A stretch of 64,000 bases of DNA, from assembly GCA_034780895.1 (NCBI GenBank), contig JAUZTB010000094.1, positions 2,965,297 through 3,029,296 on the forward strand, given 5' to 3'. Source of the stretch: Rhynchobatus australiae. Lineage: Eukaryota. How positions within the stretch are numbered: position 1 is the first letter of the stretch; the number at the start of each line of letters is the position of its first letter. The position numbers and the translations under genes are program-made. The notes under the pieces are model-generated. The model saw only the letters and a program-made list of their open reading frames with translations, was not told where the DNA came from and did not search any database. Shown one piece after another: positions 16,770 to 58,471 of the stretch.

Positions 16770-17459
16770 TCACTGGGTGGTAAATCTCCCAGCTGTTGCA
16801 GTGGGTGTGGGGGTCATAGCTGTCATGGAGGTCATGGGGGTCATGGGAGTCATGGGAGTCATCATTCCCATCTTCACTTGGTTGCGGAGATTTGCATTCT
16901 GCTCCAAAAGGAGCTCATTGGTGGCCATCAGGTTTGACACCTGTTTTTGGAGATCCTCAACGCGCTTTTGGAGCATGAGATTCTCTTCCTTCAGAAACCG
17001 GTAGTCAGCTGCGCCTGGATTTTGCATGCCGTAGTCGTATACTTCGAACCCCATGCCCTCCATCCTCCTCCTCTTCATGTGGGCGTCGTAGCCATCGTAG
17101 TGGTCAGCGTCATAACCTCTAGAGTAGAGGTCATCATAGCGGTCATATCTGCGTGCCAAGGGAGAAAACACTTGGCTGTGCGCCATACCTTGGTTTTCAT
17201 AACCATACTCGTCGCGCTTTACGTGCAGGAATTTACATTTGGGCCCTCTTTGACAGTCACCCTTTTGATAGTCGTGGCAGATCGGAATCTCACCTTTATT
17301 AACGGGTAGATCAGAAGATAAAAGGCCAAGGGTGGACATCTCATTAGCGTCTGGGTGGCGGAACTTGCAGCGCTTACCGCGGTTGCAGACGTTGCGCAGG
17401 AAGTCACGGCAAATATCATCTGTACTGGGGCCAGCCTCCTCGGTGCCGTTATCTGGCAT
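16770..17459 (-). CDS. zc3h10: ZC3H10-like CCCH zinc-finger protein, copy A (229 aa; 2 CCCH fingers, basic motif, coiled coil, short MTP-repeat tail)
   Basis: Open 229-aa frame with ICRDFLRNVCNRGKRCKFRHP (ZC3H10 finger-1 type), ICHDYQKGDCQRGPKCKFLH (finger-3 type), KRRRMEG and LKEENLMLQKRVEDLQKQVSNLMATNELLLEQNA, matching the ZC3H10 coiled coil as recalled. Pyrimidine tract and AG acceptor 48 nt upstream of the ATG. The symbol denotes family (paralog), not proven orthology. Confidence 0.9.
   Translation of the reverse strand: MPDNGTEEAGPSTDDICRDFLRNVCNRGKRCKFRHPDANEMSTLGLLSSDLPVNKGEIPICHDYQKGDCQRGPKCKFLHVKRDEYGYENQGMAHSQVFSPLARRYDRYDDLYSRGYDADHYDGYDAHMKRRRMEGMGFEVYDYGMQNPGAADYRFLKEENLMLQKRVEDLQKQVSNLMATNELLLEQNANLRNQVKMGMMTPMTPMTPMTSMTAMTPTPTATAGRFTTQ
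16809..16862 (-). repeat. Coding 9-bp tandem repeat (6 x ATGACNNCN; MTP/MTS/MTA)
   Basis: Plus strand gtcat recurs every 9 nt; translates MTPMTPMTPMTSMTAMTP. Confidence 0.9.
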
Positions 17460-17530
17460 TTTTATAGATTATTTCTGCGCTGTTTAGCCAAGGCGCTACG
17501 CAAGCAACTGCAAAAGAAAAAAAAAGGCAG
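17460..17530 (-). promoter_or_regulatory. Splice acceptor and 48-nt 5'UTR leader of copy A coding exon
   Basis: Minus strand T-rich tract ending cttttgcag|ttgcttg, AG at 17509-17508; homologous to 33301-33370 and 58472-58540. Confidence 0.8.
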
Positions 17531-18844
17531 GTCTTTACAGAGAATGAGCGATTGTTTACAAAGTAACTGCTGCGCATTCCATAAAACATTGAAATTAGAG
17601 TGGCCGCAGTAGCAAAATTAAGTGACAGTTAGCAAAGAAATCTGTGCAATATCTTTGCTTGCACAAGGAAAAAAAAACATAAGTCACATATGAATGTCAG
17701 ATCCATAAGTGAGGTGCGCGCAAAAAATGTGCTCTGCGTTTTCAGGATCATGAAGTTTTCCCAACTTCTTTTTCCAGTTATGTGGGCCATGCCAGAACAG
17801 ATCACTTCCTGATGTGCCATTATAACATTTCTTTAAAATGTATTCAGGAGGTAATCATGAAAATGTATGCAATAAAAAGTATGATCTCCAAACAATGCCA
17901 GCCTAGCTCACAACTTACACAACTAGCCTAGCTAAAGCAGTACTCATTTCACTTGCGAAGGAAAAATTTCACCAGCATGAACTCTATTCACAGGTTCACT
18001 ACTGAGCTAGCCTGTAATAACTGGGACTAACGCATGCGCTTCCATGGAAATCAGCATTAGGCTTCAACAAGAGCAACATGACCTCAAAAATGTGACTGTA
18101 GACTTCAAGCAACTGCAAGTTTTTTCCATTAGAATGCGAAGATTAGCTCAAACAAGATACTTCAGGTAGTTCTGAGCCAAGCATATCAAACAGCCAAAAC
18201 CAGACATTTGTTTCCATGATTGCAAGTTTGACCTTCCATTCATTTAATTCTGCAGACTATTTTCATCCAAAGGTGGGGCATTAGTTTTTTGTTAAAGAGT
18301 TATCATTTCCTAACGATGCAATAGTAAACGTTTGCACTTCAAAGTATGTGATAACTTCTGTACTTGCTATACGAGTTACAGCAATGTAACACTTCCTGGA
18401 TTGTCCACTTCAATTTACTACGTTTTCCACACAAGGCCACTAGGCCTCCACTTTCTTCGTCGGGAAACAATACACGTGAATACAAAACCAAATCCTCAAT
18501 CAAAAAGTGCAAACTGTTGGGAGTAATAAGAGCTAGTCAAAAAGGTTAAAACAAACAAGAGAACGAACACATTTAGAATACTACTCACTCCTTCAAATAT
18601 ATAGGAGTAAATATCCAAACACACATACCTTCCCTCACACTCCAAATGGAGTAACTGAGCACAAAGAACTGCAATTCTAGTCTTCCGTGAAAGATTAAAC
18701 GGAACCAAAACATTTTTGAAAGTACAAGCAATAAGTGTGTAAAAAATATCAAACAGTATTCTTTGCCCCTCCCCCACACAAAAGGCTGGTTGTATCCTGC
18801 GTGCCACGCAACCAAATAACGCACTTTATTCGATGGTGGATTTC

Positions 18845-19603
18845 ATCTTTTATGGTTTATATTTTTCTAGCGATATATTTGAGGAGCATGAATCAATCCC
18901 TCCGGACTCCAGCTGTTTGCANNNNNNNNNNNNNNNNNNNNNNNNNNNNNNNNNNNNNNNNNNNNNNNNNNNNNNNNNNNNNNNNNNNNNNNNNNNNNNN
19001 NNNNNNNNNNNNNNNNNNNNNNNNNNNNNNNNNNNNNNNNNNNNNNNNNNNNNNNNNNNNNNNNNNNNNNNNNNNNNNNNNNNNNNNNNNNNNNNNNNNN
19101 NNNNNNNNNNNNNNNNNNNNNNNNNNNNNNNNNNNNNNNNNNNNNNNNNNNNNNNNNNNNNNNNNNNNNNNNNNNNNNNNNNNNNNNNNNNNNNNNNNNN
19201 NNNNNNNNNNNNNNNNNNNNNNNNNNNNNNNNNNNNNNNNNNNNNNNNNNNNNNNNNNNNNNNNNNNNNNNNNNNNNNNNNNNNNNNNNNNNNNNNNNNN
19301 NNNNNNNNNNNNNNNNNNNNNNNNNNNNNNNNNNNNNNNNNNNNNNNNNNNNNNNNNNNNNNNNNNNNNNNNNNNNNNNNNNNNNNNNNNNNNNNNNNNN
19401 NNNNNNNNNNNNNNNNNNNNNNNNNNNNNNNNNNNNNNNNNNNNNNNNNNNNNNNNNNNNNNNNNNNNNNNNNNNNNNNNNNNNNNNNNNNNNNNNNNNN
19501 NNNNNNNNNNNNNNNNNNNNNNNNNNGAAAAATGCAAAGACATCGCTTTTGACAGCCCAAATCAAAATAGCAAAAAAACAAACCCAATTGGAATATGCGT
19601 CAC
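18845..19603. repeat. Unresolved duplicated element, copy 1 (77-bp flanks around a 605-N gap)
   Basis: 18845-18921 is identical to 39172-39248, and 19527-19603 is identical to 39747-39823. Confidence 0.9.
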
Positions 19604-20899
19604 TCCTAGTGACCGCAATGGTCATTCTAATATTGAGAGGATTGTAGTGACTCCCATCTTCACATTATTAAAAATCAAGATTTCATTCAGTAAATTTTAA
19701 CATTTGCCACTTTAACGCAGTGCAAGCAGTAGCACGTTAAAACTTTTCCCACATTCACACAACGTGGTGCTTCTATATCCAGTGCCTAAATGGCAGTGAA
19801 ACCAAATAAGACCTCTTACAAAGGCAATAACATCCTTATTTATGGACTACTATCTTTCCACAATACTAAACTGTAGATCACTCATTTTCCATTGGTGTTT
19901 ATTTCAAGCTTTTTCTTAAAAAAAGTTTCTATGGTCTTTAAAATTCACAAGCAAATAAAAAGGCAGTAACTGTGTAGTCATTTGAATTGATTGGTTTCAT
20001 GCCCATCACATATAATGAAAAGGTCCATCTATATCACCTCATCTTTTCTATGGCATATAACCTTTCCCAATACCTGCTATCACCACCTCTATCCCATCTG
20101 TTGTGTATGTTCTTAGGAACAGCATGCTGTGAGCAGAACAACAAAACAGTATTCCCCTCTTCCCCACCCCCCCCCCCAAATAAGGCAGTCCTAAAAGCAA
20201 CATCCCTTAGATTCTCAAGTTTTCAACACTATGTCATGTAATTGAAATATAGAACATAGAAAAGTACATCACAGGAATAGGTCCTTTGGCCCACGATGTC
20301 TGTGCCAACCATGATGCCAATCTAAACTAATCACATATGCCTGTGCATGGTCTATATCCCTCAATTCCCTGCCTGGTCATATTCCTCAAAATTTCCAATC
20401 CCCCCCAAAACTTGAACCAATTTGACAAAGATTTAAGTTATTTATCTTAATATCCTCCTAGACAGCCTGGCATCAATGCTCCTATACCTGTCCTGTGAAC
20501 CACCATTCTCATTTTCATCTCAGGGATGCAATCTGAAACATAATTCATACTCAAGTCTTAGAATTTTATCAGACTATGTACACATGGATTCCAAAATGGA
20601 TCAAATGCACACAAATGCAGAGGAATACTTCCTAAATTTTATTCAATACCCAAAATAGGCATTAAATGTCTTCAGAACTTCTGTGCAGACACTGGGGCTG
20701 GGATGCTGCTCTCGTGTCCTCAACCACTTGTGGTATGATGACAATTTAGTTCATGTAATGGAGCAAAACTGTTGTGCAGGAAGGACAAAAAGTAGGTAAC
20801 ACCATCAAAAGTGTCCTTATTATTTAGAACTTCCCAACCAATAGCCACAACATATATAGATAATACGGGATGTATTTTCCACAATTATTCACAGGTTTA

Positions 20900-21099
20900 C
20901 ATTAATTTTTTTTTAATTTTAAATTTTATTTACAGTGTGGTAACAGGCCCTTCCAGCCCAACGAGTCCGCGCCGCCCATTTTAGACCCCAAATTAACCTA
21001 CCCATACGTCTTTGGAATGTGGGAGGAAACCGGAGCACCCGGAGGAAACCCACGCAGACACGGGAGAACGTACAAACTCCTTACAGGCAGCGGCGGGAT
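20900..21099 (-). mobile_element. V-SINE (HE1-like) with CR1-type 3' tail, 5'-truncated
   Basis: Reverse complement of the V-domain core (gggaggaaaccggagcacccggaggaaacccacgcagacacggg), tail aacaggcccttccagcccaacgagtcc and an A-rich end. Confidence 0.8.
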
Positions 21100-22499
21100 A
21101 AAATGGTCATAATAGTCATTTGAAATGTTTGGTACCCACTTCGAGAAAATTTTACCAGCATCAATATCCCTTATTTTGCTATGATCAAGTACAAGACTGG
21201 TGGGTCTTTGACTATTCTCAGTCGTCATTATCCACTGATTTGCTTATCTGCCAATCCACAAGATCAACCTCAGGCCTCATCTATATGTGTGTACACATTG
21301 GCAACCACACACACACAGTGATCAGATTCCAGACCACTTGCATCGTAGCTCCCTACTGTGCACTGCTCAAACTTATAACTGCTTACAAGTATAAATACCT
21401 TCAAATGTTTGTTAGCTAATAAGCCCTTTTTAGGTATTTAAATGCTCCAATGTTTATTAATTTTGGGGCACACTTATGTTTACTTGGGGGAGGGACATGT
21501 ACTGGTACAAAGGACAGAGCCTTTGTGGTATCTGCACTTGTTATCTGTGGAGTCTGTGCCCCTATCCCCCCCCCCCCCCAAAAGATAATGGGACAATGTA
21601 AAGAAATTGGCTTTGGTAATATCTCACCAATGGACAAGGCAACTTAACATTTTGTCTTAAAGCAAGGAGAAATGCTCAACTGACGGCAGTAAAAATTACC
21701 CCATTACATACAATTTTTCACCAAAACATTCTGGTGTCTTTTATGATCTCTCTCCTGAAAGGTAGTATCCTGTAGTTACACCCACTCATCCCAACCAGCT
21801 TCCTCCAATGCCTTCATCAAGCAACTTGATGGCATCATCAGCTTCTACTCTTGGTACTCGCCTACTGCCCCCATCCCTTGCTATTAAGGGTGAACAGCCA
21901 AAAAGCCACAACCATGCCCAAATTGTAGAGACAACAGTGTGCATACAAGATCTACATGGATCTTTAAAATGGCACAAGAAGCAGAATTTTCCAAATTAGA
22001 TAGATCTGGAATGAAATAAAAACTAGTTTTAGCAACGTCTGTGCCATAGCAATACAAATTTTAATAATTCTAGTCTCAACATTTAAAGTAATACCAGGAT
22101 AAGAACTTGAATCACCAAGATACCAAAGTGCTGGTCAATAGATTTAGTACAAAATGGGACTTGATGGTCAGCATGGATATGGTGGACCGAAGGGTCTGTT
22201 TCTGTGCTGAATAACCCAATATATACAACTGATTTAAGCTTTACAGGTCAATGATTTTTCAACCACCATTAATGATGTTAATCAACTAATCCAGTGCAAA
22301 TTAATGGTTTCTCTCTCAACAGATGCTGTGTGACCCATTTCAGACTTCCAGCATTTGCAGATTTTAATCAACTATAACTGATTACTTAACTTGGATTGCA
22401 AAAGGAAGGAAAACTGCCAACAGCCCAATATGGGATTAATTTGAACAGCAAAAGTGTTGAAAGAGGTTAGTAATTTGCCATTAACAACAGAACACCCAA

Positions 22500-22900
22500 G
22501 GATCTCAGTGGGTCAATCAGCATCTGTGGAGGCAAAAGGTGCAAGTCCATGTTTCGGGACAAGATTCTGCGTCTGAACTGGGAGGGAACAAGAAAGGTTG
22601 CCAGTAGACGGGGGGGGGGGGGGGTGGAANNNNNNNCAGCGAGTCAGAGGGGGAGGGGAGGATGGAATTAGAAAATTCAATATTCATACCACTGTGTTGT
22701 ATGCTACCCAAGCAGAATATGACGTTGTGTCCTTCCAATTTGTATTTTGCCTCTCTGTAGTAATGGAGAAGGCAGAGGATAGACAAATTGGTGTAGAAGT
22801 GGGAAAGAGAGTCAAAGTGACCTGCAATATATTGGAGGAAGTGGAGAAACAGTTGGTGGTCAAAAATCAACTTCACACATTTGTTGACACAAGAAAGACT
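22500..22900 (-). mobile_element. Penelope-like element 3' fragment (GIY-YIG C-terminus and terminal repeat)
   Basis: Peptide HFDSLSH...LSILCLLHYYREAKYKLEGHNVIFCLGSIQHSGMNIEFSN resembles fish PLE endonuclease C-termini. Confidence 0.75.
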
Positions 22901-23470
22901 GGAGAGGCTGGAAATCTGGAGCAACACACAAAAAAATGGAGGAACTCAGCAGATCAGGCAGCATCTATGGACGAAAACAAACAGTTCACATTTCTGGCAG
23001 AGACCCTTCATCAGGACCGGAAAGAAAGAGAGCAGGAGCCAGAATAAAAGGGTGGAGGGAGGGGGAGGAGCACAAGCTAGTGGGTGGCAGGGCGAATCCA
23101 GGTGAGGGAGGAAGATAGGGGTGGGAATGATGAGAAGCTGGGAGAAACCGCTATCTCTTTATTCCATGATCCACTGTCCTCTCCCTAACAGATTCCATCT
23201 TCTTCAGCCCTTTGCCTCTTCCACCTATCACCCCTCAGCTTCTCATATCATTCCCACTTTCCCCCCCCTCTATATCTTCCCTCTCTCACCTGGATTCACC
23301 TATCACCCACCAGTGTGCTCATCCCTCTCCCCCCATCCTTTTATTCTGGCTTCTGCCCTCTTTCTCTCCAGTCCCGATGAAGGTCTCAACCAGAAATGTC
23401 AACTGTTCATTTCTCCCCATAGATGTTGCCTGACCTGGAGAGTTCCTCCAGCATGTTTGTGTGTTGCTCA
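22900..23470. repeat. Inverted pair of Penelope-type terminal repeats
   Basis: ~22920-23141 is the reverse complement of ~23235-23470 (gcaacacaca...ggaggaactc versus gagttcctcc...tgtgtgttgc; ccagaataaaagg versus ccttttattctgg). Confidence 0.85.
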
Positions 23471-24439
23471 CACATTTGTCATTTTGGATTTTCTCTGGAA
23501 AAAAGTGACCAAAGTGTTGGCATTAGGCATATTAACAAAAAGCCTAATGGGATGCCTATAAATAAAAAAAAGATAACTATTCAAAGCGGAAGCAATATTT
23601 TAGGGCTCTAAAGTTAAATAATGCTGGAATGCTCAACTTTTAAAAATTGACAGAGACACCAGGGGAAAGTCAAACACAACACCAGCAAATTTAGCAACAT
23701 ATCTTCAGAACGATGGGCAAAATACCACCGGGATTAGGTCATAGCAAAGTCCACTTCTCTCGGACATAAACTTCCACGTTTGAAAACTAGTCACTCCATA
23801 ACAAAGGAGTACTGGAGCCCCACCTGCTTTATCTCACATATATCCAGTTTAATTTTAATCCCACTTCAACTAAAACCATCTCATTAAGATCAGAAGTGGG
23901 ACGTTCTAGTTGGTATAACTCAATTACACGGATATTTTAGCAACATTACTCTCTTTGCTTTATATGCATCAACAGTTTTGAGTAACTCCAGCATGCTCCA
24001 GAACATTGCTTAAAACTGCCGGTGATATTAAAATACTTTAATGTGTTCTAAAGACTTTAGTCTGATAACGATTTAAAAATATACAATATCAATAGTTGAT
24101 ATACACTATAATACAATGGTTTTGAAAGTAACTAATCTGTAAGAACATGGTTCAGAAGTGCATTGTAAATTAGTTCATCGCCTTTGATTTGATGTTAGAT
24201 AGTCTCCTTTCCAAAGCAACTTGCTCGTTGGAAGGGTTTAAACATCCTATTCTGGGTGGTCAGAGTATAACTAATTTCGTGGTAGAAAATGAAGTCAACC
24301 GCGTCAATTAAAATCTCCACAGCAGCGACTCTCGGTTGGAATCACAAATAGTCGAGCAAGGGTGAATAACAGGGCGAGGATAAGAGCTGGAGCACCACTG
24401 ATTTCCTAAACTGCAATGTTCAACACAAGGGTTAGTAGT

Positions 24440-24780
24440 TAGAGGAAACAGCAGCGCCAGAGAGAAATCCAAGGGCTCTGGATCTTACCTCCACGCATCC
24501 AAGCGGCCTCAACTTGTGCGCAATTTAATCGGCCTTTGGAAACAATTGACGATGAAATCAACTCGGGCCTCATCAACACGAAGGTCTGGAGGAGGGCGGA
24601 ATTTCTAGGGAAGGCGGCGGTTCCCATTGGTGAATTTACCCGCCGATTTGGCGCAATAGGTTCAGGCGCCATTTTGTAAGCAAAGCGGAGAAAGACGCGG
24701 CCTGAGAAACCGGTTGTAAAATGGCGTCTCCATACTGCCACCCCTACCCCGCAAATCACATACGCACGTTAACAATTATA
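24440..24780. promoter_or_regulatory. CpG-rich promoter region (YY1 x2, CCAAT, GC box, E2F-like site)
   Basis: High local CpG density in a CpG-poor background. GGCGCCATTTTG 24665-24676 and AAAATGGCG from 24718 (YY1, opposite orientations); ATTGG 24626-24630; GAGGGCGGA 24592-24600; TTTGGCGC 24647-24654. Confidence 0.75.
24489..24694 (-). other. Putative first (likely non-coding) exon
   Basis: Strong donor GAG|GTAAGAT at 24489/24488 inside the CpG-rich region. The 5' end is guessed from the pyrimidine motif TCTTTCTCC (24695-24687). Confidence 0.55.
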
Positions 24781-25032
24781 CAAGGCAACTTAAGGAAGAA
24801 TAGGACGTGAACGGTTCAAAGGAAAAAAACAGGATAGCAACCACAAAGTTTCCCATTTCCAATCGAGTGTTCCTTCCAATTAACAAGGTACCATGAGACC
24901 AAATCATAATGCACTGAAATGAACAATTGCTGGAAAAATATACTGGAAGCTAAAGCAAGTACAAGTAGTAGTCAGACCCAAACTTAATTAAAATACACTA
25001 AACGTTACTTCAGCAAACACCCCACTTTTTAC

Positions 25033-25240
25033 AGAGAAACAAAGGACTGCAGATGCTGGAATCTTGGTGAAAAACGTGTCAACGTTTCGGGTCAGGACTC
25101 TTCTTCAGGACTCAAGAAGAGTCTGGCCCGAAACGTCGACCACCTGCTTTTCTCTATGGATGCTGCCTGGCTTGCTGAGTTCCTCCAGCATCATCGTGTT
25201 TTTCATCTGGATTCCAGCAACTGCAGTACTTTATTTCTCT
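25033..25240. repeat. ~208-bp foldback element from inverted Penelope-type terminal repeats, with hammerhead-like cores
   Basis: Outer arms agagaaacaaaggactgcagatgctggaatc / gattccagcaactgcagtactttatttctct; inner arms gtcaacgtttcgggtcaggactcttctt / aagaagagtctggcccgaaacgtcgac. Confidence 0.85.
25076..25113 (-). ncRNA. Minimal type I hammerhead ribozyme-like motif (PLE-associated)
   Basis: Minus strand gagtc-CTGAAGA-agagtcctgaccc-GAAAC-GTT-gacac: CUGANGA and GAAA cores, short stem II with one mismatch, palindromic ACGT helix III, partial stem I. Confidence 0.55.
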
Positions 25241-25244
25241 AGGG

Positions 25245-25625
25245 AACACTAAAGGTTTGAGGCAAGGTAGCTAGGAGTACGGTTGTCAATGGTGGAGCAA
25301 AGAAAATCAAGGATCCGGGTCAGAACTTGAAGGAATGTAGAGAACTTGGATGGTTGCGAGCTGGGGAGCTAGAAAGACACTAAAATAATTTGTAAATAAA
25401 AAGACGAGAATTTTAAAATTCAAATATTGACGGACCGAAACAGGCAACAGGCACGTGTAAATGGAATGGTACGAAATGAGACTTGATAAAGGGAAAGTAT
25501 CAGCTGTTGAAGGAACGTTATGTCCCAAATGCAAGAGATGCAGAGATCATGCAAGAGCAATTTCTGGAGTTTCATGATTCTGAAAGTTTTACTTGGTGCA
25601 GAGACGGGATGTGATGCCACAAAAG
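25245..25625 (-). mobile_element. L2-clade LINE fragment
   Basis: Minus peptide LPVSVRQYLNFKILVFLF is typical of the L2 ORF2 C-terminal region. Confidence 0.55.
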
Positions 25626-26329
25626 GTAAAGAGTAATTTGCACTTATGAAAGAGAAATACGTTTATAAATGGTGCATCTATTTATGTATTCCTATGTAAT
25701 TTTTGGTTGTTAGTGAACTGTGTGTTTGCTGAACAGCATAATGAAGTGGCTGTCACAGCTAAATGAACAGTCACAGAACAGGAACTTAAAATCACCCTGC
25801 AGAGTCCTGTACTCTGGTACCAATAACAGAATTTGGTCTAATAAAATCCTATGGGCCTAACTGACAGAAATATGTAATGTATTCCCCAAAACACCCAAAT
25901 GGTTGAAGTAAATGACTTATTCAACCACAATAAAGCACACACCAAACCAGTTTGAAATCCACAACTCTTCTCTTTGAACTGGCCAAATTTGACAACTTCT
26001 CGACTTCCCAGAATCTCAGCATATTCAGAAACTCTCGGCTCGTGTTCTTTGATTTTCGAGNNNNNNNNNNNNNNNNNNNNNNNNNNNNNNNNNNNNNNNN
26101 NNNNNNNNNNNNNNNNNNNNNNNNNNNNNNNNNNNNNNNNNNNNNNNNNNNNNNNNNNNNCTGGAAGTAACTTGTGTTAAGTAGAAGGGCATGTTAATAT
26201 ATCCCTGCTTTAAAACATTGTGCAATTACAGATTGCAAGACAATCTGAATTTTGCACTAAAATAATGAGTTTACTGACTTAATGTTTTTAATTTTACCGT
26301 TCATATTCTTTATATACTAATAGATTCAG

Positions 26330-26890: not shown

Positions 26891-26919
26891 CAATCAGCTC
26901 ATCAACCTGACCTTCCTGA

Positions 26920-30700: not shown

Positions 30701-30929
30701 GGAGAGATATAGCACAAAAATGGGCCTTTCAGCCTATTGAGTCTGTGCCAAACATCAACCACCCATTTACACTAATCCTACATCAATACCTTTTTTTTAA
30801 AATTACATCCACATTCCCATCAACTGCTCTCCCCTTTCCCTTGGCAAATGTCTGAAAACAAACAGGTCTTTTTTCCATATTGGTATCACGTTTAACCCAG
30901 AGATGATGATATCAATATGCTTAGAAGCT

Positions 30930-32810: not shown

Positions 32811-33300
32811 CATTTGTTAGCAGAAGTGTGCATTTTGCTCCAGGTCTGACACTTGTGTGGCGTTCTCAATTGCGATTTCACAGGATAAGGTTTTTGCAAA
32901 AGTATTAGGAATCAACTGGATATGAACTCAGGATGCATCATTCCCATCCAGATGTGGATCACTCTTTGTCTCGATAGACACCTACTCATCAAGGAAAAAG
33001 CACTGGATAACTGTACATGCTTTCCACATTGTGATTTTCACCACACCTACAAGTTTCTATCTGCAATTTACATCTGATCACTGGCATCCAACCTTCTGTC
33101 AGTCACGGCAGACTGGAATCCAGCATTTAAGACGTAGGTCATCGAAAAAAAAGCCAAGCTCAAAACTTATTAGACTTTGGATGGCGGAACTTGCAGCGCT
33201 TGCCGCAGGTGCAGAAGTTGCGCATGACTTCTTGGCAAATATCAGTGCTATTGGTAGTCACGTTGTTGCCAGTGTTGACTACATGATCTGTACCTGACAT
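32811..33300 (-). pseudogene. ZC3H10-like pseudogene, copy B
   Basis: ATG at 33300 with the same leader and acceptor as copies A and C. First finger reads ICQEVMRNFCTCGKRCKFRHP, then a stop at 33162-33160. Downstream remnants IPVCRD*QKVGCQ* (finger-3 homolog) and QVSDL/EQNA (coiled-coil homolog, ~32811-32858) carry stops and indels. Confidence 0.85.
33160..33300 (-). CDS. Residual 46-aa single-CCCH micro-ORF within copy B (expression unknown)
   Basis: Manual translation: MSGTDHVVNTGNNVTTNSTDICQEVMRNFCTCGKRCKFRHPKSNKF*. C-x7-C-x5-C-x3-H spacing is intact. Below the ORF-track length cutoff. Confidence 0.35.
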   Translation of the reverse strand: MSGTDHVVNTGNNVTTNSTDICQEVMRNFCTCGKRCKFRHPKSNKF

Positions 33301-33370
33301 TTTATAGTTTAATTCAGCGCTGTTCATTCAAGGTGCTCAGCAAGGAACTGCAAAAGAAAAACAAGTCATA
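33301..33370 (-). promoter_or_regulatory. Splice acceptor and leader of copy B exon
   Basis: Minus strand ttgtttttcttttgcag|ttccttgctgag...ctataaaATG; AG at 33349-33348. Confidence 0.75.
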
Positions 33371-36680: not shown

Positions 36681-36689
36681 AGTGAAAGC

Positions 36690-39171: not shown

Positions 39172-39823
39172 ATCTTTTATGGTTTATATTTTTCTAGCGA
39201 TATATTTGAGGAGCATGAATCAATCCCTCCGGACTCCAGCTGTTTGCANNNNNNNNNNNNNNNNNNNNNNNNNNNNNNNNNNNNNNNNNNNNNNNNNNNN
39301 NNNNNNNNNNNNNNNNNNNNNNNNNNNNNNNNNNNNNNNNNNNNNNNNNNNNNNNNNNNNNNNNNNNNNNNNNNNNNNNNNNNNNNNNNNNNNNNNNNNN
39401 NNNNNNNNNNNNNNNNNNNNNNNNNNNNNNNNNNNNNNNNNNNNNNNNNNNNNNNNNNNNNNNNNNNNNNNNNNNNNNNNNNNNNNNNNNNNNNNNNNNN
39501 NNNNNNNNNNNNNNNNNNNNNNNNNNNNNNNNNNNNNNNNNNNNNNNNNNNNNNNNNNNNNNNNNNNNNNNNNNNNNNNNNNNNNNNNNNNNNNNNNNNN
39601 NNNNNNNNNNNNNNNNNNNNNNNNNNNNNNNNNNNNNNNNNNNNNNNNNNNNNNNNNNNNNNNNNNNNNNNNNNNNNNNNNNNNNNNNNNNNNNNNNNNN
39701 NNNNNNNNNNNNNNNNNNNNNNNNNNNNNNNNNNNNNNNNNNNNNNGAAAAATGCAAAGACATCGCTTTTGACAGCCCAAATCAAAATAGCAAAAAAACA
39801 AACCCAATTGGAATATGCGTCAC
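39172..39823. repeat. Unresolved duplicated element, copy 2 (77-bp flanks around a 498-N gap)
   Basis: Identical flanks to 18845-19603 in the same orientation; similarity stops abruptly outside them. Confidence 0.9.
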
Positions 39824-45084: not shown

Positions 45085-45262
45085 GGCAATTTGGTACTGG
45101 CAGGGAATTCTAAGCCAACATTTCACCTGAAAGATGGGCAATCTCTACTGTGAATACTCCCTTGGTACCGCAATGAAGACTTAGATTCCAATCTATGGAG
45201 TGAAGCTTTAACCTATAACCTTTAACTCAGAGATTAGGGTGCAACCCTCTGAACCACAGTTG
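45085..45262 (-). mobile_element. Deu-domain SINE remnant
   Basis: cacctgaaagatggg...tactcccttggtaccgcaatg...taactcagag. Confidence 0.5.
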
Positions 45263-48015: not shown

Positions 48016-49799
48016 CCTGAAAATTGAATCTTCATTTCCCAGAGAGTCAAGCCTTTGAAATGTGTTGTCAGCTTGTCTGAGGCAGAGATCCCACCATGTA
48101 AAAGATTATTTCAACAGTAACCAACACTTGCACAACTCAATGATCTTGTGGACTGGTTTTGATCAGCAGGGTGGGAGAAAAAAGGAAAATGGTGGGCGGG
48201 GGTTAGAGGAGCTTTCCAGGATTTTTTTTTGCTTTCTTGCCTTTCCCAATGTATTAAATAACTGCTGGGTACTAACTTATATTGTTGTGCTGCTCTTGGC
48301 ATCACGAGTGCAGGCTAAAATGAGTGCTCGATAGAACTGGCCTTCCGACAGGCTCGTATGATAACAAAATGGTTCGTGCTATTTCTCTCTACATGGCGAT
48401 CTGCTCCAGTGTAATACTACAATTGTGACATTACGGGAAGCAATTTTCCCTGCTTATCAACTTATCTTCCTGTGCACCAGTTTGCACAGAGCAAGCTCCG
48501 TGAACACATAAATGATACATCATAAAAATGGTTAATGTACAACATTTAATATATTAACAAGGGGGCTCCTGTGATGTCGTACATGGTATAGTAAGGAGAC
48601 TAAAGAGGAAAAAGGAAAAACGTTGAAGATCCTGGGAAAAAAACGTGAAAATAAAACTTAAAAGGGAAATAGTGGTTATATTTTTGTTTTCAAAGAGCTG
48701 TTAAGGGTGAATTAGTGAAAGGCCAGGCCAAGGTTGGGAATATTTGCAGAGCCTGAAAAGTTTTCCCTTGTTAACTGGCAGACAGGACTAGGAACCTGAA
48801 AGTTTTGGTATTAGTATATTATTGTCACTTGTACTTGTACCGACTTTTTGCAAACAAACAGCAGTCTTACAGGGAGGAGCATGTTTTATGGAATTAGATT
48901 GGAGAGAGGAACCTGTTGAAGGATCACTATTTCTCACAAGCTAGGTCAGCGGAGAGTTTACATATTTAAAAAAAAATCCAGGTAGCAAGAGGGCACGGGC
49001 AGGAAATTTAGAATCAAAGTCACAGCATGGAATGTGGGCGAGCTCCCATCAAAAAATGNNNNNNNNNNNNNNNNNNNNNNNNNNNNNNNNNNNNNNNNNN
49101 NNNNNNNNNNNNNNNNNNNNNNNNNNNNNNNNNNNNNNNNNNNNNNNNNNNNNNNNNNNNNNNNNNNNNNNNNNNNNNNNNNNNNNNNNNNNNNNNNNNN
49201 NNNNNNNNNNNNNNNNNNNNNNNNNNNNNNNNNNNNNNNNNNNNNNNNNNNNNNNNNNNNNNNNNNNNNNNNNNNNNNNNNNNNNNNNNNNNNNNNNNNN
49301 NNNNNNNNNNNNNNNNNNNNNNNNNNNNNNNNNNNNNNNNNNNNNNNNNNNNNNNNNNNNNNNNNNNNNNNNNNNNNNNNNNNNNNNNNNNNNNNNNNNN
49401 NNNNNNNNNNNNNNNNNNNNNNNNNNNNNNNNNNNNNNNNNNNNNNNNNNNNNNNNNNNNNNNNNNNNNNNNNNNNNNNNNNNNNNNNNNNNNNNNNNNN
49501 NNNNNNNNNNNNNNNNNNNNNNNNNNNNNNNNNNNNNNNNNNNNNNNNNNNNNNNNNNNNNNNNNNNNNNNNNNNNNNNNNNNNNNNNNNNNNNNNNNNN
49601 NNNNNNNNNNNNNNNNNNNNNNNNNNNNNCCCACACATACCCAACAGATTTCCTCTACTTACTCCACAACAACAAATAAAAGCCAATTCTATTGCACATG
49701 TCAACTTGGATCTTGTGCACAATAAAAGTTTGCTGTTGGGAAGCCCTCAACAAAAGTGACACATCCCACCATGCTGCTTTAACGTGCCTCTTCAAGTGA

Positions 49800-50020
49800 A
49801 AGGTGTTTTTGTGAGGTTGGCTGAGGACACCAGGTAGATCTTCCCAACTCTTCTGTGAAAAACAGTTTGGGATCATTTTTGTCCACGAGAGAGACCAGGC
49901 AGGGCCTTGGTTTTGCACTTCATCCAACAGACAACACATTTGAAACCGCATGGCTTCACTACATTCAACTTAAATCTTAAAAATGGGGCTTTAACCCTTA
50001 CCTGATTTGAGAGCACGAAG
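49800..50020 (-). mobile_element. Deu-domain SINE remnant
   Basis: caggtagatcttcccaactcttctg...gggatcatttttgtccac...gggccttggttt...tcatcc. Confidence 0.5.
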
Positions 50021-53000
50021 TACATCCTACACACAAGAATATTTTATGTATACATATATTGATGATTACCAAATTGATATACAAATACCATTAAGTTCAT
50101 TCCTCTGAGAAATGTCCCCAATTAGGACATTAAAAATGAATCAGGGTGAGTTAGAAATACTGGAAGAATAAACATTAATGTACTTCTTTTAATGCATACT
50201 TGGATTCTCTATAGTTTAGTCAAAGGTCAAAACTAGTCATATTTGGAGAAAATATCATTGTAGGTGTTTCTCTGCAGTATAGGCTGAGATACTTCAAGAT
50301 GCAACAGCATCACAACTGGTAGCATGGTACTATATAGCAAGATTCTATAGGAATTTATAATCAAAGACAGAAGTTCTCACATAAATGTTACATTAAATAT
50401 GAGATAAATATTTTGAATTAAGAATCCAGAAGTGAAAATCATTAACATATCAATAGATTTATATTTGGAGGCTTTCTCTGGTTTCCAATGATAGTTTAGG
50501 AAGTGTTTGAATTATCTACTTTAGTTATTATCCTCACAGCATTAATTACAGGAGCTTAAAACATGCAGTCTTCATGAAAACAAGATTAGGAAATGGACAC
50601 AAAAGATCCCATGGCAATATTTAAAGAACAGAAATTAGTCCCATTGTTCTGGCCAATATTTAAGCCTCTGCCAAAATCACAAATGAAAACAGGTTATCCA
50701 ATCATTACCACATTAATCTTAGTTTACACAAAGTAGACTTCCGCATTTCCTAAATTTACTTTAGAAAGAAATGCATTCTAACATTAAAGCATTGAGACAT
50801 CCCTGGGTTGTCTCTCTTAGTTGGGGCAATACCTACTATGCAATATTTACTTCTATGCACATCCTCCACCTTCCAATGTACCAGTTTCAAGAGTATAGTA
50901 AGATGCCATTTGGCCCATTGAGTCTGTACCACATCCTTTCAAAAGAGCTTGGCAGTCTCAGTTGTTCCCCACCTATGTGCAATTTCTCTCCAAGTATTTA
51001 CCCCTTTCCCTTTTGAAAGGGATTAATGAATCTTTTTCCATTTTTCACATCAAGCAGGGCACATCTTGCTTAGCCACTTATTGTATACAAAGATATTTTT
51101 CCTCTCATCTTCTCTGGCATTATTTATAACATCTTAAGTTGGCTTGAATTCTCAGTCTCCACCTCTTGCTTGGCAGCCAAGCCACAAAGTCAGAGGACAT
51201 GCTCCAGCAGTGGCCAGGTTTAGTTTCACACATTAACCACATTTTCTGCAGTGGCTGAATGGTGTTCACTGGCGATCAGGTGTTCACTGACAAATCTCAT
51301 CCAAAGTGATTTGCACTGTAGCTCCCAAAATGTTGCCATCATCTACCAAGCTCATCTGTTCTGCATTTTCCTGCAAAATTGAGACTTGACAGATTTGCAA
51401 CTGCAGAAAGGTCAAATCAACCTGCTTTGATATGTTAGCTATCAACCGAGCAATATCAAATGGAAATATAAAATGACTACCTGTTCAAAAAGAAAAGCTG
51501 ACAGTCAGATGGCAACCTTATAGAGTATTATTGTCCTCCAGCATTCTCATTCCTGGCAACGTTATACAGGCAATGCACCAATGTGCAAAGACAAAAAGCA
51601 AAAGTATAAATATTGCATATTCAGATCATTCAGAAAATAAAAAGACGCCTTCTGGAGCCCCTTGTAGTGGATTTACTTTATTCTAAACTGAAGATGTTAA
51701 TTGAACAGATATTGACATGTTGTGACATGAATTTGCAATAAATAACAAAATTAAATGTTCTTTTCTGACTTCCTACATGGCCACTTATGAAGATTTTTTG
51801 GGGCATTGATTTCAATTCTATACAAGAACAAAGCAAAGATTATGAACAAGAGCAGGACAAGTTGAACCCTGCTATCTTTTCTTCACTGTCACAGCCATAT
51901 TTTACCGTCCTCCTATCCGGTGGAGTACATCTGAATGCAGCTCAAAGCAGATGAATTCAAGCAATGTTAGGAATAATCATCAAGCAAAATGGGGATAGGA
52001 CCATGATTTTAATCCAAGCTATAGATGGAGCCAATCCTCTGACCCTGGCTCAAGCAATGATTCAACTTGACTCCAGAAGAGCCAGTATAAGCAGGTCAAT
52101 ACAAACTAGTGGATTTCATATGCGAAGTAGAAACCCAAAGTGTCTAGGATCACTGCTAAACGTTGTTCATTATTTAGAACTCTACTTTTAAATCCACTGA
52201 AAATGATGTGATTAAAAACAGAAAATGCAAGACAGAGAAATATTGCAATGCACGCACAAGCATCCAACAGAAGTACAATTATTTCCCCCATTTGTTCAGC
52301 AAGAGACATTGTCTTGTGCATTACATTAGCTGTAGATAAGAAAGTGGGTGTCCTTCACCCAGCCTTTTACTTATACTGCTCTGAAACTGGTGCTGCTGGC
52401 ACACATAAGATGTTGGGGACAAATCCTTGAGCCATCCCTCTATATTTCCAATGTGAGGAAGTAGTTAATCTCAGTCCAGCTCCTTCCCTCAGTGACATGG
52501 CTATATAAGGAGGAAGGAGGGCAAGTTTGCAGATACAAACTGCTATCCTCTTCCTATGTGGAGTTACCCGTTTCCCCTCACCAATTTAAATCTTTCACAG
52601 TTGTGTCTGTATTTAGCATGTAGGATAAGACAGTGAACCATAATTGAATCTGCCAGGTGTTTCTGTAGGATGCCTCCCACAAAATCTAATGTATAAATTA
52701 GCATGGTGAATTAAGTCATCCAATATGCACGAGTGACAGTCAAAGGGTCTTCTCAAGACCAAAAGCAAAGAGTACTTGCTAAACTGCCTAGATTTTTCTG
52801 AATGCTTAAGACTAAAAAACCCTTAATGAATAATTACTAATGTCAGGAGTTAAAACATTAACTGACAACATATATACTAGTTATACACTATGGAGAAAGT
52901 GCTTTTTTAAAAATGTTATCACAATGTGGATTAAAAAATCTACAATTTACACAATTAAACAAGATACAAAAGAACACTGGGAGCTTAGGTTATATAAAAG

Positions 53001-53824
53001 TTAATTAGAAAATAATATTACATGCAGCCCAATGGAGAAACACAATTAAAGATACATGTCTTCCAAGTCCACTTGGCTCCTTCAAAAAGAATGTGAACTC
53101 ACCATTTCTGGTCCTGAATCAGTTTTAATCCCAACAATACACGTGACAACACCACTGTACATTCATTTTAATATATAGTTTGTAGTATTTACACAGTGTT
53201 CACCAACTGTACCAACTAGAGGGTACCAACAGTAAACATTTGCAGATTCTCAATAAATGATAACTTTTCATAAACATCAGACATCATTGACAGTTGGTAT
53301 CTACAATAATAACTTATCAGTTCAAAAATGGACAAAATGGGTTTATGGGGCCTTTGAAACACATCTTGAATTGCTTTAGATTTTGGAATTTTTGGCAGCA
53401 ATTAACTAATCTTGGAAGTTGGCCACTATGTTGTGAAATTTCAGGGATTCTCAAAACAGTAAAGTTTTACCTGTATTTTAAGACCAAGGTTTACCGAAGA
53501 CTCATGTGCCAAATTTCTCACTGTTGGTGTTGGCCCTATAAATACTTCCCCACAAAGAGCATTTTCAATACTGCTCACTGACTGATAGAAATCTCACCAT
53601 CNNNNNNNNNNNNNNNNNNNNNNNNNNNNNNNNNNNNNNNNNNNNNNNNNNNNNNNNNNNNNNNNNNNNNNNNNNNNNNNNNNNNNNNNNNNNNNNNNNN
53701 NCTAACATTTTTACTTTTATTTTTCTTATTATCATAAGTAGTTATTAATAAAGTAGTTTTTAACACTTATACATGACTTGGTATGTTTCTTTTGTTGCTG
53801 GTTCATAACACCTATCTGCCACTC

Positions 53825-53997
53825 CAATTATTGACTCTCCTACAAACAAAAGATTACCCTTTGTCTTCTGCTCCCATTCAACAGCCTTATACTCAATCCT
53901 GCTTGCAAAGAAATCTATCTGTCATTGCAATTATTGACTCACGCAAACACAAGATTACCCTTTTGTCTTCTGCTTGCACTCAACAACCTTCTACTCA
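53825..53997. repeat. Imperfect direct repeat, 2 x ~70 bp
   Basis: caattattgactc...caaacaaaagattaccctttgtcttctgct...tcaaca.cctt.tactca at ~53825 and ~53928. Confidence 0.8.
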
Positions 53998-55746
53998 TAG
54001 GTGTATTGCACTGAGTTAATAGTGCCAGTTTGTTCTCCATTAAACCTGAACTGCATTTACTTCATGTGTTATCAGTCACGTAACTTTTGTTCTGATCGAG
54101 CACACCCAGCAAAGTGTGGCTAAGGATTGGAGCAAGTTGTTTATAGACTCTTATCCTTTCTCATTCCAGATAACGTCTAACTTGCACTCAAATTCAAATA
54201 CTCTGAGTAGAACAGATTCAAAGCTTAGACATCATTGGAGATGTGTTTGGTTAGACCAAACTTCTGCTTACTTCAGTCCAGGCACACACATGACTCCACC
54301 ATAGCTTAGACCACCTTTCATTCTTGATTATTTTTTGACTTTGGTATTTAACTGTTAGCGAACACCAAAACACAAACATTAATACCAAAATTGCCAACCT
54401 ACGAGGGCATTAATACTGAATCCTAAGTTTTTTGCTGCATTTCATGTTTCTAATCTATGTGTAATTATAAGACTTCCCCTCCCTCTTTTTCCTTTTGCCA
54501 ATTTTCTATCCTCATCTTTCTCACTCGAAGGTACAGACACAATGTGGTCAAGGTGCATTCAGGTATTTTCATTTAGGAGCCCAGCTGAGTCAGATTTTAT
54601 GCTCAACAGCCACAGGCATCTTCACAGGGATACACGGATAATACGCTTTAATGCACATTTATACTGTTCGTGACTAAAATGTATTTTAGTCAAATCACAT
54701 ACATACACATTTACATATATATCATCTATATAGTGGGATTTTGTATGAATGTGTATTTATATTTTCTCTGGATTGGTTTTGCAACTTAAAGCAGCAGACA
54801 CCCCCAAAATCCTCTGATTGACAATGAGCTAGTACAATGGGGTATCTGACAGATGAGCATCCTAGCCAGATGTCAAAATGGCATGGCAATATACAAGTGC
54901 TGAGCTTCAACCTTCCAATAATGCAACATCATATGATAAGAAACCAGCAATTCTTTCTCCACAGCTTCTGCTGCAATTTACAGACCAACACCCAGTTTCC
55001 ACGACCTAGGCACTAAATGAAATCTATATGTATAACATATTCATTTCACAAGCTTGCATAACAATTACCTGCACATTCTAGCTTCACTTTAATATCCTTG
55101 GTGGTTACAGTGACCGTTTATGGCGAATGTGTATTAATTTTATTTCTGAAAACACTTTTTGTAGTCCATCTACTGAGGACTTGTACAGTTTTGAAATAAA
55201 AATATAGTAAATGTATGATCAGTTAAATGCATTGATCAGAAAAAATCTATTTGTAAAAAAAAACATAGAAGAAAACATGTTAATTGATGACTTGAGAAAA
55301 GAGGCAGAGGGCATGTTTAATTATTAAAATACTTTAAACTAAATGCACAAGACTCTCTCAAAAAACTTTTCTATACACATTTGCTTAGAAATGGGATGGA
55401 TACAGAAATTCTTTTTGCAAATATTAGAATACTTATACTTAGCAAAGTAGGGATATTGCTTTTCATTCCCAGTAATTACCCCAAATGTAATTTCTGAATA
55501 AAAAGGAAAAGAAAATTTGTGGCACAGGATCACTGTTTAAAATTTTTAAAAAATACATCTGTAATCAACCAAAAGAAGTGAGAATCTAACAATGTTAAGG
55601 GGATGGGGAAGTTTACTCACTTTCTCAATTAATTGTTTGTTTTGACAGAGCCCATCAACCTATTATTGTTCTTGTAGCAGATGTTTATATTCAATATAGG
55701 TAGAGGAAGCCTTGCCATCAATACCTCTTGTAAAAAATATAATTGT

Positions 55747-55752
55747 TTTATT
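55747..55752 (-). terminator. Candidate polyadenylation signal (AATAAA) for copy C
   Basis: Plus-strand TTTATT in the context ttgttttattgtt, the same local context as 13719. Other AATAAA hexamers exist nearby. Confidence 0.25.
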
Positions 55753-56824
55753 GTTTGACATAACTAATACAATTTGAACTTGAGTACTCAAATCTGAGAA
55801 ATTCTGGAGCAAGACAGTTTGAAAGAACTTAATGATTATCAGTAACTGCCATCATTAATCCAAGATGCTTCAGTGATCTTACTTCCAAATGCCCTCATCC
55901 TAAGTTAGCCCCATGATGTTGCCCAGTTCACTGCTGCATTTAAAGGAAGGCAGCCATTATGTATTAGATTTGCATTGTCCTCCCTCTGTGGGTGAAACCG
56001 TCCTATTTATCTCATTTGTGCTACAAAACAGTTTCACCAAGAGGGAGAAAGGGGAGCCATGGTGCCATTTTCTGCACATTCCAATTTCTGCTCCAACCAC
56101 AATCAAAGCAGTAGAGGATTATTTTTGGGTGAGTGGGATGGAGGAGAGAAAGAGGGTATTTACTTATATTTTTATTTAAAAAATCCTGGCTTAAAAAAGT
56201 GATTTAAAAAAAAATCAATGCTTGAAAAGGCACAATGCTCTTTAAGCGCATGTACACGTGTTTTTAGAAAGCATTTTTGATGTTGATTGGAACCAATTTT
56301 ACATGAGCAAGCAAAGCAGCCATAGTTGCAGAGAAAAACCTATCCCCACTGCTGCAGCAGTAGGAGAGCTTGAGTTGGTGTGGGCATTGCAATGCGCTGT
56401 CAAAGACTTTGCTTTCATTAGGCACCAGAGCTTACAATGTGAGCAAATCAAAAATCAAGGTTTCTGCTGACACCAAACGTTCAAAGAATTCAAAAACACG
56501 AGTTGTATTTAATCTTTTCCCCCCAGAAAAAACATTTGCGACATATATAATGGCAAACTGAAGCATGTTTCAACTTCCATTTGCTACTGTTGCTGAGGTA
56601 CAATTCTGCGCAGACTGTACTCCTGGTGAGTTCAACAGCAACTACTATTTGAGACAGGAAAAAAAATTCTCATTATTTCATTTTTGTTTTGTTTTTGCAA
56701 AAGGGTTCGTGATGGTGAGACTCCCTCTTTGAGAATCATACTTGACTCAGTTTTTGCAATTGCCCTGGGAAGCAATAAGAAATAGAAATCTTCTGTAAAG
56801 ATTCAAACGAAATGTCTTCTAATC

Positions 56825-58471
56825 TCAACTCTCCTCTGCACGACAGAGGAACCTCATACTCTGTGATGCATTTGGATAACTGACCATTTGAGTGGTGGTA
56901 TAACTCATGGCAATGCCTGGGAGCGATTGCGTAACTGCCACTGGTGCAACTGAGATGGCAATTGGTGCTATTGAAACTGGTGAAGCCATCCCCTGGGCAT
57001 AAGGTGTAGAGAGAGCAGCACTAAGATGGGGTGGACTTTGGGATGTAGCTTCAGAACACAAAGCATTATGAGCTCTAGCTTGCGCTATTAATTCTTGATG
57101 AGAAATAGGCTGTGATCTCAAGGTCTGGTTGCTAAGAGTGGTGTGAGTCTCCACTATGCTATGATTATAATTGGCAAGAGTGTGCATAGTTGGTGGTTGT
57201 GATGGATCATTTCCTGTGGTCAGGATGCCCAGCTTCACTTGCTTGCGTAGATCAGCATTTTGTTCCAGAAGAACCTCATTTGTAATCATTAGGCTTGACA
57301 CCTGCTTCTTAAGCTCTTCATTGCGCTTTCTGAGCATATGGTTTTCCTCTTCCAGAAAACTCATTTCAACTGGACGCAGATTGGACGTACTGTAATCAAA
57401 TACTTCAAACCGCAGGCCCTCCATTCTTTTTCTTTTTGGATTTTGATCATAATCACATTTCTCAGTCTCATACAGGTCATCCAAACGGTCATATCTGCAG
57501 ATCTCAGGAGAAGCTTCTCTATTTTGTGACAATTTTTCTGTGCTTTTCTTATCGTTGTCATCACGTTTCAAGTGCTGGAATTTACACTTGGACCCTCTTC
57601 GACATTTGCCTTTTAGAAAGTCACGGCAGAATGGGACTTCCTTTGTAATAAGAGGCAAATTAGAGGGTGAAAGCCCAAAAGTCACAGCCACTGTCTTTTG
57701 CAAGTGGGCAGGAAGCTTTCCTGTTTTATTGTAATAATTCTCTTCACCCTTTGTCCCGTGAATGAACGTGCAGTTCTCACGGGTGCATTTGCTATTCTGA
57801 AAGTACTGACAAAAGATAGACTCATGCCGCATATCACCTACATCATAGGCTTCAACATTGTCCGGGTGAAAGTACCTGCAATTCTTACCACGACTGCAGA
57901 CATTGCGCAGAAAGTCTCGACAAACATTCCGTTTGCTCTTGCTAGCGTCATGTTTGCTATTATTGACTAAATTATCAGCATCATTACTTAGGTCAGCATG
58001 GTTGGAGACCTCAATATCATCTGGGTGAAAATATCTGCAATTCTTACCACGATTGCAGAGATTGCGCAGAAAGTCTCGGCAAATGTTCAGTTTGCTTTTG
58101 CCAGCCTCATCATTGCCAACGTTGACTAAATTATCAATGTCGTTCCTTATGTCAGCGAGTTCAGAAGCCTCAATGTCATCTGGATGGAAATACCTGCAAT
58201 TCTTACCACGGCTGCAGACATTGCGCAGAAAGTCTCGGCAAATGTTCTGTTTGTTTTTACCAGCTTCATCGTTAGCAATGTTGACTAAATTATCAGTGTC
58301 GTTCCTTATGTCGGCAAGGTCGGAGGCCTCAACATTGTCGGGGTGGAAGTACCTGCAATTCTTACCACGGGTGCAGACATTGCGCAGAAAGTCTCGGCAA
58401 ACATTCCGTTTGCTCTTGCCAGGCTCATATTTGCTGCTGTTGACTAAATTATCAGTGTCGTTCTCGGACAT
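56825..58471 (-). CDS. zc3h10: ZC3H10-like CCCH zinc-finger protein, copy C (548 aa; 4x finger 1, finger 2, finger 3, coiled coil, S/T/P/A-rich C-terminus)
   Basis: Open 548-aa frame: four CRDFLRNxCxRGKNCRYFH fingers, FCQYFQNSKCTRENCTFIHG, FCRDFLKGKCRRGSKCKFQH, PKRKRMEG, LEEENHMLRKRNEELKKQVSSLMITNEVLLEQNA, and C-terminal TTQMVSYPNASQSMR typical of ZC3H10. Acceptor AG at 58521-58520. Confidence 0.93.
   Translation of the reverse strand: MSENDTDNLVNSSKYEPGKSKRNVCRDFLRNVCTRGKNCRYFHPDNVEASDLADIRNDTDNLVNIANDEAGKNKQNICRDFLRNVCSRGKNCRYFHPDDIEASELADIRNDIDNLVNVGNDEAGKSKLNICRDFLRNLCNRGKNCRYFHPDDIEVSNHADLSNDADNLVNNSKHDASKSKRNVCRDFLRNVCSRGKNCRYFHPDNVEAYDVGDMRHESIFCQYFQNSKCTRENCTFIHGTKGEENYYNKTGKLPAHLQKTVAVTFGLSPSNLPLITKEVPFCRDFLKGKCRRGSKCKFQHLKRDDNDKKSTEKLSQNREASPEICRYDRLDDLYETEKCDYDQNPKRKRMEGLRFEVFDYSTSNLRPVEMSFLEEENHMLRKRNEELKKQVSSLMITNEVLLEQNADLRKQVKLGILTTGNDPSQPPTMHTLANYNHSIVETHTTLSNQTLRSQPISHQELIAQARAHNALCSEATSQSPPHLSAALSTPYAQGMASPVSIAPIAISVAPVAVTQSLPGIAMSYTTTQMVSYPNASQSMRFLCRAEES
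57827..58462 (-). repeat. Coding tandem repeat, 4 x 159 bp (53 aa), each with one CCCH finger
   Basis: Motif ttgactaaattatca recurs at ~57963, 58122, 58281 and 58440 (period 159). Peptide unit NDxDNLVN...CRDFLRNxCxRGKNCRYFHPD. Confidence 0.95.

Follow-up and report, generated by a model that had tools for sequence, protein, structure and literature searches.

The question raised by this locus is whether the ZC3H10-like exons in a 64,000-nucleotide stretch of the Rhynchobatus australiae genome (the window, part of contig C94) are working genes, how they arose, and whether proteins with different numbers of CCCH fingers could act together. In a six-frame scan, CCCH fingers were located at three minus-strand sites of the window: two at 17411-17223, one at 33237-33181 and six at 58399-57572. 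The corresponding exons (copies A, B and C) are the middle of a larger, five-copy ZC3H10 cluster on contig C94, in the order D, A, B, C on the minus strand and then K on the plus strand. Distances from the window are 3.4 kb to copy D on the left and 11 kb to the canonical copy K on the right, K being on the opposite strand; a genome search with copy A gave 12 matches at six loci. The cluster is a genuine, old and functional set of genes that includes one pseudogene; sharks and rays alike have conserved its four intact copies. The chances stand about even that this ancient whole-gene cluster encodes proteins working as nuclear leucine-zipper dimers, with K pairing with A and C with D. The copies are as follows.

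16770-17507, minus strand: coding exon of copy A, a 48-nt leader (17507-17460) and an open reading frame (17459-16770) of 229 amino acids.
32830-33347, minus strand: pseudogene copy B, with acceptor, 47-nt leader, ATG at 33300, finger 1, a TGA at codon 47 and remnants.
56825-58519, minus strand: coding exon of copy C, a 48-nt leader and an open reading frame (58471-56825) of 548 amino acids.
57864-58463, minus strand: tandem repeat within copy C, 3.8 units of 159 bp (53 amino acids), each with one copy of finger 1.
C94:2961008-2961847, minus strand: coding exon of copy D, 279 amino acids, three fingers, no tail; 3.4-4.3 kb left of the window.
C94:3040375-3041577, plus strand: copy K, 400 amino acids, canonical, with three fingers and the full ZC3H10 layout.
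C79:7728701-7729571, unlinked: copy E, GC-rich (0.93 at third codon positions, GC3), its start inside a gap.

ZC3H10 was the best database protein match for all copies queried. Marmoset ZC3H10 aligns with the fingers of A, C, D and K, and Pfam zf-CCCH was matched. Those orthologs of A, C, D and K that were checked contain a basic motif resembling a nuclear localization signal (NLS) and a coiled coil; both are absent or decayed in B. Copy A has the order finger 1, finger 3, KRRR motif and leucine zipper, without finger 2 and without a C-terminal tail. Copy C consists of four copies of finger 1 followed by finger 2, finger 3, the basic motif, a zipper with Asn at its second a position, and the tail. 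A preliminary description of this DNA had stated that no copy has the three-finger layout; this holds inside the window, where A has two fingers, C six and B one intact, and fails just outside it, where the three-finger copies D and K flank the window. Its claim that finger number differs between functional paralogs stands: two in A, three in D and K, six in C.

How the copies arose was assessed from their splice acceptors and first exons. The leader between the acceptor AG and the ATG measures 48 nt in A, 47 nt in B and 48 nt in C, and coordinates and alignments agree with the earlier reading of three same-strand exons with homologous acceptors and leaders of 47-48 nt. For each of the 10 possible pairings of the five copies A, B, C, D and K, the acceptor-plus-leader alignment scored above every one of 500 shuffles. 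RNA reads at the acceptor of A run on into an exon on an unplaced contig, C55669 (L036, 759 bp, 32 CpG), whose 77-bp ends match both flanks of a gap on the A side at 100%; the remainder (759-154=605 bp) is exactly the length of that gap. Two cassettes with these ends are present.

18845-19603, minus strand: promoter and first non-coding exon cassette of copy A, its middle a gap, with a splice donor near 19132.
39172-39823, minus strand: second, near-identical copy of this cassette (promoter plus exon 1), 5.8 kb upstream of B, its middle a gap.

The second cassette carries the 77-bp ends found in C55669, its outer flanks are unrelated, and a contig of another species connects its left flank (matched by eye) to the cassette. 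Since both gaps share the ends of C55669, the assembler collapsed two near-identical cassettes, which lie upstream of A and of B respectively. The pair likely reflects a recent duplication or gene conversion, and the second cassette, although placed above the long-dead B, may still feed A or D. Beyond the right end of the window, at a distance of 1.3-1.8 kb (L018:1350-1760), further homologs of exon 1 stand head to head about 220 bp apart, one facing K and the other C. The K side scored 122.5 against the C side (shuffle maximum 60.5), and exon 1 of A scored 90 against the K side (shuffle maximum 56). These head-to-head first exons of C and K are the centre of an inverted duplication and likely form a bidirectional promoter. 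The copies are thus whole-gene duplicates of first exon, intron and coding exon, and one inversion set C and K head to head. Retrocopy origin is ruled out, because acceptors and first exons were kept; the earlier argument for genomic tandem duplication is borne out and extends to the first non-coding exon. In a contig of another species, the acceptor of A is reached from another donor upstream, at 18825. A CpG-rich stretch at 24300-24750 contains a motif, AAAATGGCG, which we take to be YY1-like, and has little RNA in the mapped runs; it was rejected as the promoter of A, because its main bin has a depth of 0-1.1 and its sequence does not resemble exon 1.

Copy B is a decayed two-finger pseudogene. 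Its sole intact finger (33237-33181) is followed by a TGA at 33162-33160, and downstream of this stop lie a frameshifted remnant of finger 3, joined to finger 1 in the manner of A, and later a remnant of the zipper end. The segment past finger 1 scored 304.5 (shuffle maximum 147), and the DNA of B is nearest to A (156 bits, compared with 105 for K, 101 for C and 88 for D). The single finger, previously taken as the mark of a one-finger paralog, is therefore what is left of a two-finger gene. In Callorhinchus, three neighbouring accessions on one scaffold correspond to the ortholog of A, a second intact two-finger protein and K; from its position and N-terminal likeness, B may be the remnant of that second two-finger gene.

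The intact copies have orthologs in species spanning sharks and rays. The elasmobranch orthologs of A (11 proteins) are 92.6-100% identical to it and the Callorhinchus one 77.6%; for K the values were 95.2-99.8% in 13 proteins (the highest, 99.8%, in sawfish) and 77.2% in Callorhinchus, for D 89.6-98.6% in 13 proteins, and for C 86.8-95.4% in 17 six-finger proteins. Sawfish also has a five-finger C, 98.4% identical to copy C; these protein matches put the genome with the rays. Neighbouring accessions of the orthologs on one scaffold in several species, gene order there being deduced from accession order and scaffold length, argue that the cluster is no mis-join. The chimaera lineage split off about 420 million years ago (PMC6238376; for this and the other papers cited, parts of the published text are the source). 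No Callorhinchus C or D was among the matches listed (the best 120 of 433 and the best 120 of 194). The notion of a lineage-specific family survives at the level of the class only, as the A type is common to the chimaera too.

Selection was estimated from the ratio of replacement to synonymous rates (dN/dS, omega). Copy A differs from a contig of another species by 14 synonymous changes and 1 replacement change (omega 0.02, P 8e-9). Paralog pairs gave omega values of 0.24-0.30 at dS of 1.1-1.6, which is near saturation. The repeat units of C are 77-86% identical (14-23% divergent), with pairwise dN/dS of 0.17-0.49, and each is nearest to its positional counterpart in 11 orthologs (unit 2 by a narrow margin). 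The low ratios in A and in the C units, together with ortholog conservation, support purifying selection on A and C, and A, C and D are almost certainly selected paralogs. A 9-bp repeat at 16808-16862 encodes Met-Thr-Pro-type units at the C-terminus of A; its copy number varies between species and accounts for most of the length variation of A.

Two trees were built on finger 1 plus the region from finger 3 to the zipper end, with B and the E of this genome left out. The 38-protein tree places A, the chimaera copy, C and D in one clade (97/88), a clade that the 24-protein tree leaves open. The relatives of E (n=7), which represent chimaera, sharks and rays, have two fingers and a tail; they join K at 96/73 in the 38-protein tree, and their placement is not settled in the 24-protein tree. 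E may be a 2R ohnolog, in which case its split would predate that of cartilaginous and bony fishes. A single loss of finger 2 common to A, the chimaera copy and E may have occurred, the approximately unbiased test giving a p-value of 0.184 (p-AU). E is without finger 2, much like A, yet keeps the tail. Two K-type proteins share a scaffold in the skate Rhinoraja.

In the course of this history A lost finger 2 and the tail, C quadrupled finger 1, D lost the tail and B decayed. These changes bear on residues with known roles in mammalian ZC3H10, the only form for which RNA or DNA binding and gene regulation are known. The mouse protein requires its zipper region to bind DNA and fingers 1 and 2 to bind RNA, and it has a p38 site at S126 (PMC6911170). 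Repression of interferon-stimulated genes (ISG) in human cells depends on the NLS, every finger, the coiled coil and R89 (PMC13375009); the role of R89 is taken with caution, because the R89A primers given there seem, by eye, to encode another part of the protein. An N-terminal fragment of ZC3H10 selects AGUGCAG RNA (PMC11612968). The Ser-Pro site equivalent to S126 is retained in 14/14 K-type and 17/17 C-type proteins and is gone from 12/12 A-type and 14/14 D-type proteins. R89 lies in finger 2, the finger missing from A; by eye, the residue is kept in K, C and D. The finger 1-3 pair of A aligns as a single stretch with the tandem fingers of MBNL (E 1e-6). An AlphaFold2 model of C (mean predicted local distance difference test score, pLDDT, 32; predicted template modelling score, pTM, 0.18) was uninformative except for a helix at 367-413.

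Expression was followed in three stranded RNA runs of a related species mapped to the locus, from which the signals of A and D were read; dispersed repeats dominated the joint and loose-end tables in the first read mapping. Depth over A was 19-38 in the three runs and 0 in the next intron bin. First mates fell on the plus strand, which in most libraries means minus-strand RNA. Loose ends lay exactly at the acceptor of A (25 reads in run X21; 18 plus 9 in X23), and contigs of runs X1 and X7 also break there. RNA of relatives shows that A is transcribed, with splicing at the predicted acceptor. Some cross-mapping reads belong to D (7 and 5 reads) and others, by eye, to E; D is transcribed as well. 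Most C orthologs have several RefSeq accessions each, which usually denote transcript variants. A run search with C listed no RNA run; run X1, which looks spliced at A and contains half of the sampled words of C, was not counted.

A donor at 17294, inside the coding exon of A, joins position 1194 in 3 reads of one run. This is the edge of an additional exon.

1151-1194, minus strand: internal 5' exon of D, from RNA reads, with a translation like the N-terminal extension of the zebra-shark D isoform P0293.

An A-D fusion protein was rejected, as read-through hits a stop in the leader of D (by eye). The joint does raise the alternative that A and D serve as alternative 3' terminal exons of a single transcription unit, a switch between two and three fingers that would be compatible with the dimer reading and to which we give slightly less than an even chance. 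Between A and D there is neither a CpG-rich stretch nor a homolog of exon 1, and in Chiloscyllium punctatum RefSeq labels D 'isoform X1' and A 'isoform X2'. These isoform labels are names only, however, the three splicing reads come from a single run, no read linking exon 1 to D was seen among those mapped to A, and part of exon 1 of A may be hidden in other gaps.

Whether the proteins could act together depends on the zipper. In A, C, D and K, Leu occupies the d positions and Asn, Val or Ile the a positions, and the e and g residues are nearly alike in the four intact copies. Of the ZC3H10 proteins retrieved, only C and D carry Asn in place of Val in the inner zipper core: the second a position is Asn in 36/36 C/D-type proteins and in 0/246 others, with 22/304 outside the pattern. 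Asn-Val a-a' pairs strongly destabilise basic leucine zipper (bZIP) dimers, and such mismatches are frequent among bZIP non-binders and rare among binders (PMC4335062). As C has Asn and A has Val at the second a position, A:C is predicted to be disfavoured, and K:A and C:D to be favoured. On these bZIP rules we predict two partner classes, K/A/E and C/D, with odds that we regard as balanced. The A:C heteromer, which the preliminary description had put forward as possible, would bring Asn of C against Val of A at an inner a position, a pairing predicted to destabilise the dimer.

Zipper modelling was limited to the K:A pair, which scored 0.66 (best of 3 controls, 0.01). The score mark was reached by 51/78 solved and 2/108 mismatched microbial pairs, and by 39/65 solved and 2/126 unrelated eukaryotic pairs. 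Runs agreed in at least 86% of contacts, the partner pLDDT was at least 70, and the model is in register, with residue 226 of K (K226) opposite residue 167 of A (A167).

Several points weigh against dimers of this kind. The model may pass merely by likeness to solved leucine zippers, paralog choice not being resolved by it, and a Fos-derived zipper matches the ZC3H10 family profile. The parts of PMC6911170, PMC13375009 and PMC7879490 available to us contain no statement on ZC3H10 dimerisation (term 'dimer'). The Asn rule stems from true bZIP proteins, whose basic motif ZC3H10 does not have, and C and D carry Asn at four of six a positions, so that their dimerisation may be weak or nil. The C+D clade is not strongly backed (84/74 in the 38-protein tree, 83/82 in the 24-protein tree), and exon 1 of A scored 57.5 against the C side, below the shuffle maximum of 62.

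If the proteins do pair, A, which keeps a K-compatible zipper and the basic motif and is without the finger-1/finger-2 pair, R89, the S126-Pro site and the tail, would retune the RNA and single-stranded DNA targets and the kinase control of K in a K:A dimer. Because its fingers are near-invariant, A probably binds a target of its own, beyond merely blocking K. The change from Val to Asn would keep C and D from pairing with K and A, and the four extra-spaced finger-1 units of C would raise avidity for repeated motifs. In its fullest form the proposal is a two-channel combinatorial system that cartilaginous fish derived from one ZC3H10 gene. In it a single Val-to-Asn change would separate K/A/E from C/D dimers, arrays of two, three or six fingers would determine which RNA or single-stranded DNA each channel targets, and A or D would be picked by alternative splicing from a common promoter cassette that was duplicated near-identically. 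We consider this full form unlikely.

A rather unlikely alternative, somewhat better placed than that full form, is that the intact copies are independent, specialised regulators, split by tissue or stage and acting alone or as homodimers, with heterodimers irrelevant. A, C and K each have their own first exon, finger and tail changes are fixed in each paralog, and the MBNL-like finger 1-3 pair of A could be a self-sufficient binder. However, A and D reads co-occur in the same RNA runs, the first exons of C and K lie head to head about 220 bp apart, and A retains the K-type zipper core with a K:A model that passes its controls. It is less probable still that all zipper-bearing copies pair freely, A:C included, to give combinatorial finger arrays as first suggested. 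The Leu d positions and near-identical e and g residues of the four intact copies would allow it, and one Asn-Val mismatch in six heptads may merely weaken binding; yet Asn is fixed in all 36 C/D-type proteins and absent from the 246 others, and such mismatches mark bZIP non-binders far more than binders (PMC4335062). A reading of the copies as errors of assembly or as neutrally evolving remnants is refuted in the case of A, C and D. The assembly does contain gaps and did collapse one repeat at this locus, and B is debris, but orthologs are 87-100% identical in many species, omega of A is 0.02, the repeat units of C are 14-23% divergent, and spliced RNA is found at A.

The wider locus was compared with the linkage of ZC3H10 to PA2G4, RPL41 and ESYT1 that had been suggested for checking. 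An extended-synaptotagmin (ESYT)-type gene, not assigned to a paralog, lies about 100 kb left of the cluster and PA2G4 about 1 Mb right of it, both on contig C94, whereas RPL41 was not found near the cluster; linkage to PA2G4 and an ESYT gene thus holds. In the tetrapod read-through models P0054 and P0056, however, the linked genes differ in order and strand. The ESYT gene shares its strand with D, A, B and C, not with K. A strong CpG-rich stretch about 34-36 kb right of the window (L021) is likely the promoter of the next gene.

The genes were already known in so far as RefSeq annotates them automatically as 'ZC3H10-like', and the mechanism proposed here is deduced from their sequences. No paper on ZC3H10 paralogs or their expansion in cartilaginous fish was found by title and abstract, subscription papers and some supplements lying outside the search, and no ZC3H10 occurs in the whale shark supplementary files examined (12 of 24). 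The copies matter for several reasons. The modes of action of mammalian ZC3H10 are disputed, with DNA binding through the zipper region set against binding that depends on the fingers and R89. The natural variants of sharks and rays (A without finger 2 and tail, D without tail, C with four copies of finger 1) allow separate tests of these domains. The Asn common to C and D would provide a one-residue, testable case of escape from paralog interference. Finally, A is about as conserved as the parent gene, which suggests that it has a core function in elasmobranchs that has gone unrecognised.

Compared with vertebrate ZC3H10, with its three CCCH fingers, NLS, coiled coil and low-complexity tail, the full layout is found here in K; the differences are five tandem copies and an unlinked one, two- and six-finger forms, loss of the tail in A and D, the zipper Asn in C and D, and loss of the S126-Pro site in A and D. 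MBNL, which has two finger pairs and no leucine zipper, is the nearest solved match to the finger 1-2 pair (E 4e-13) and to the finger 1-3 pair of A (E 1e-6); the match is limited to the finger pair, and C repeats finger 1 alone rather than a pair. The bZIP networks are alike in having Leu at d and Asn or Val at a, and in the in-register pairing of the model. The bZIP basic region has the motif N-x7-R/K directly before the zipper. This canonical motif was not seen by eye before the ZC3H10 zipper, where K has a Pro; A and C gave no match to the bZIP Pfam families at E 0.01, and ZC3H10, unlike bZIP proteins, binds RNA through its fingers.

Mcm1/Arg80 is a case of paralog interference. Paralog heteromers formed after duplication of a homomer in yeast either keep or lose their cross-pairing (PMC6711710), a course that the ZC3H10 copies would resemble if, as we presume, ZC3H10 is a homodimer. 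In contrast to the yeast cases, a single residue tracks the predicted split here over hundreds of millions of years, as far as sequence can tell. Duplicates are likewise present in the axolotl, which has two ZC3H10-like proteins with neighbouring accessions, one of them shortened. The salamander duplicates group with the tetrapod genes and therefore arose separately from the shark and ray copies; in contrast to these, they keep three fingers.

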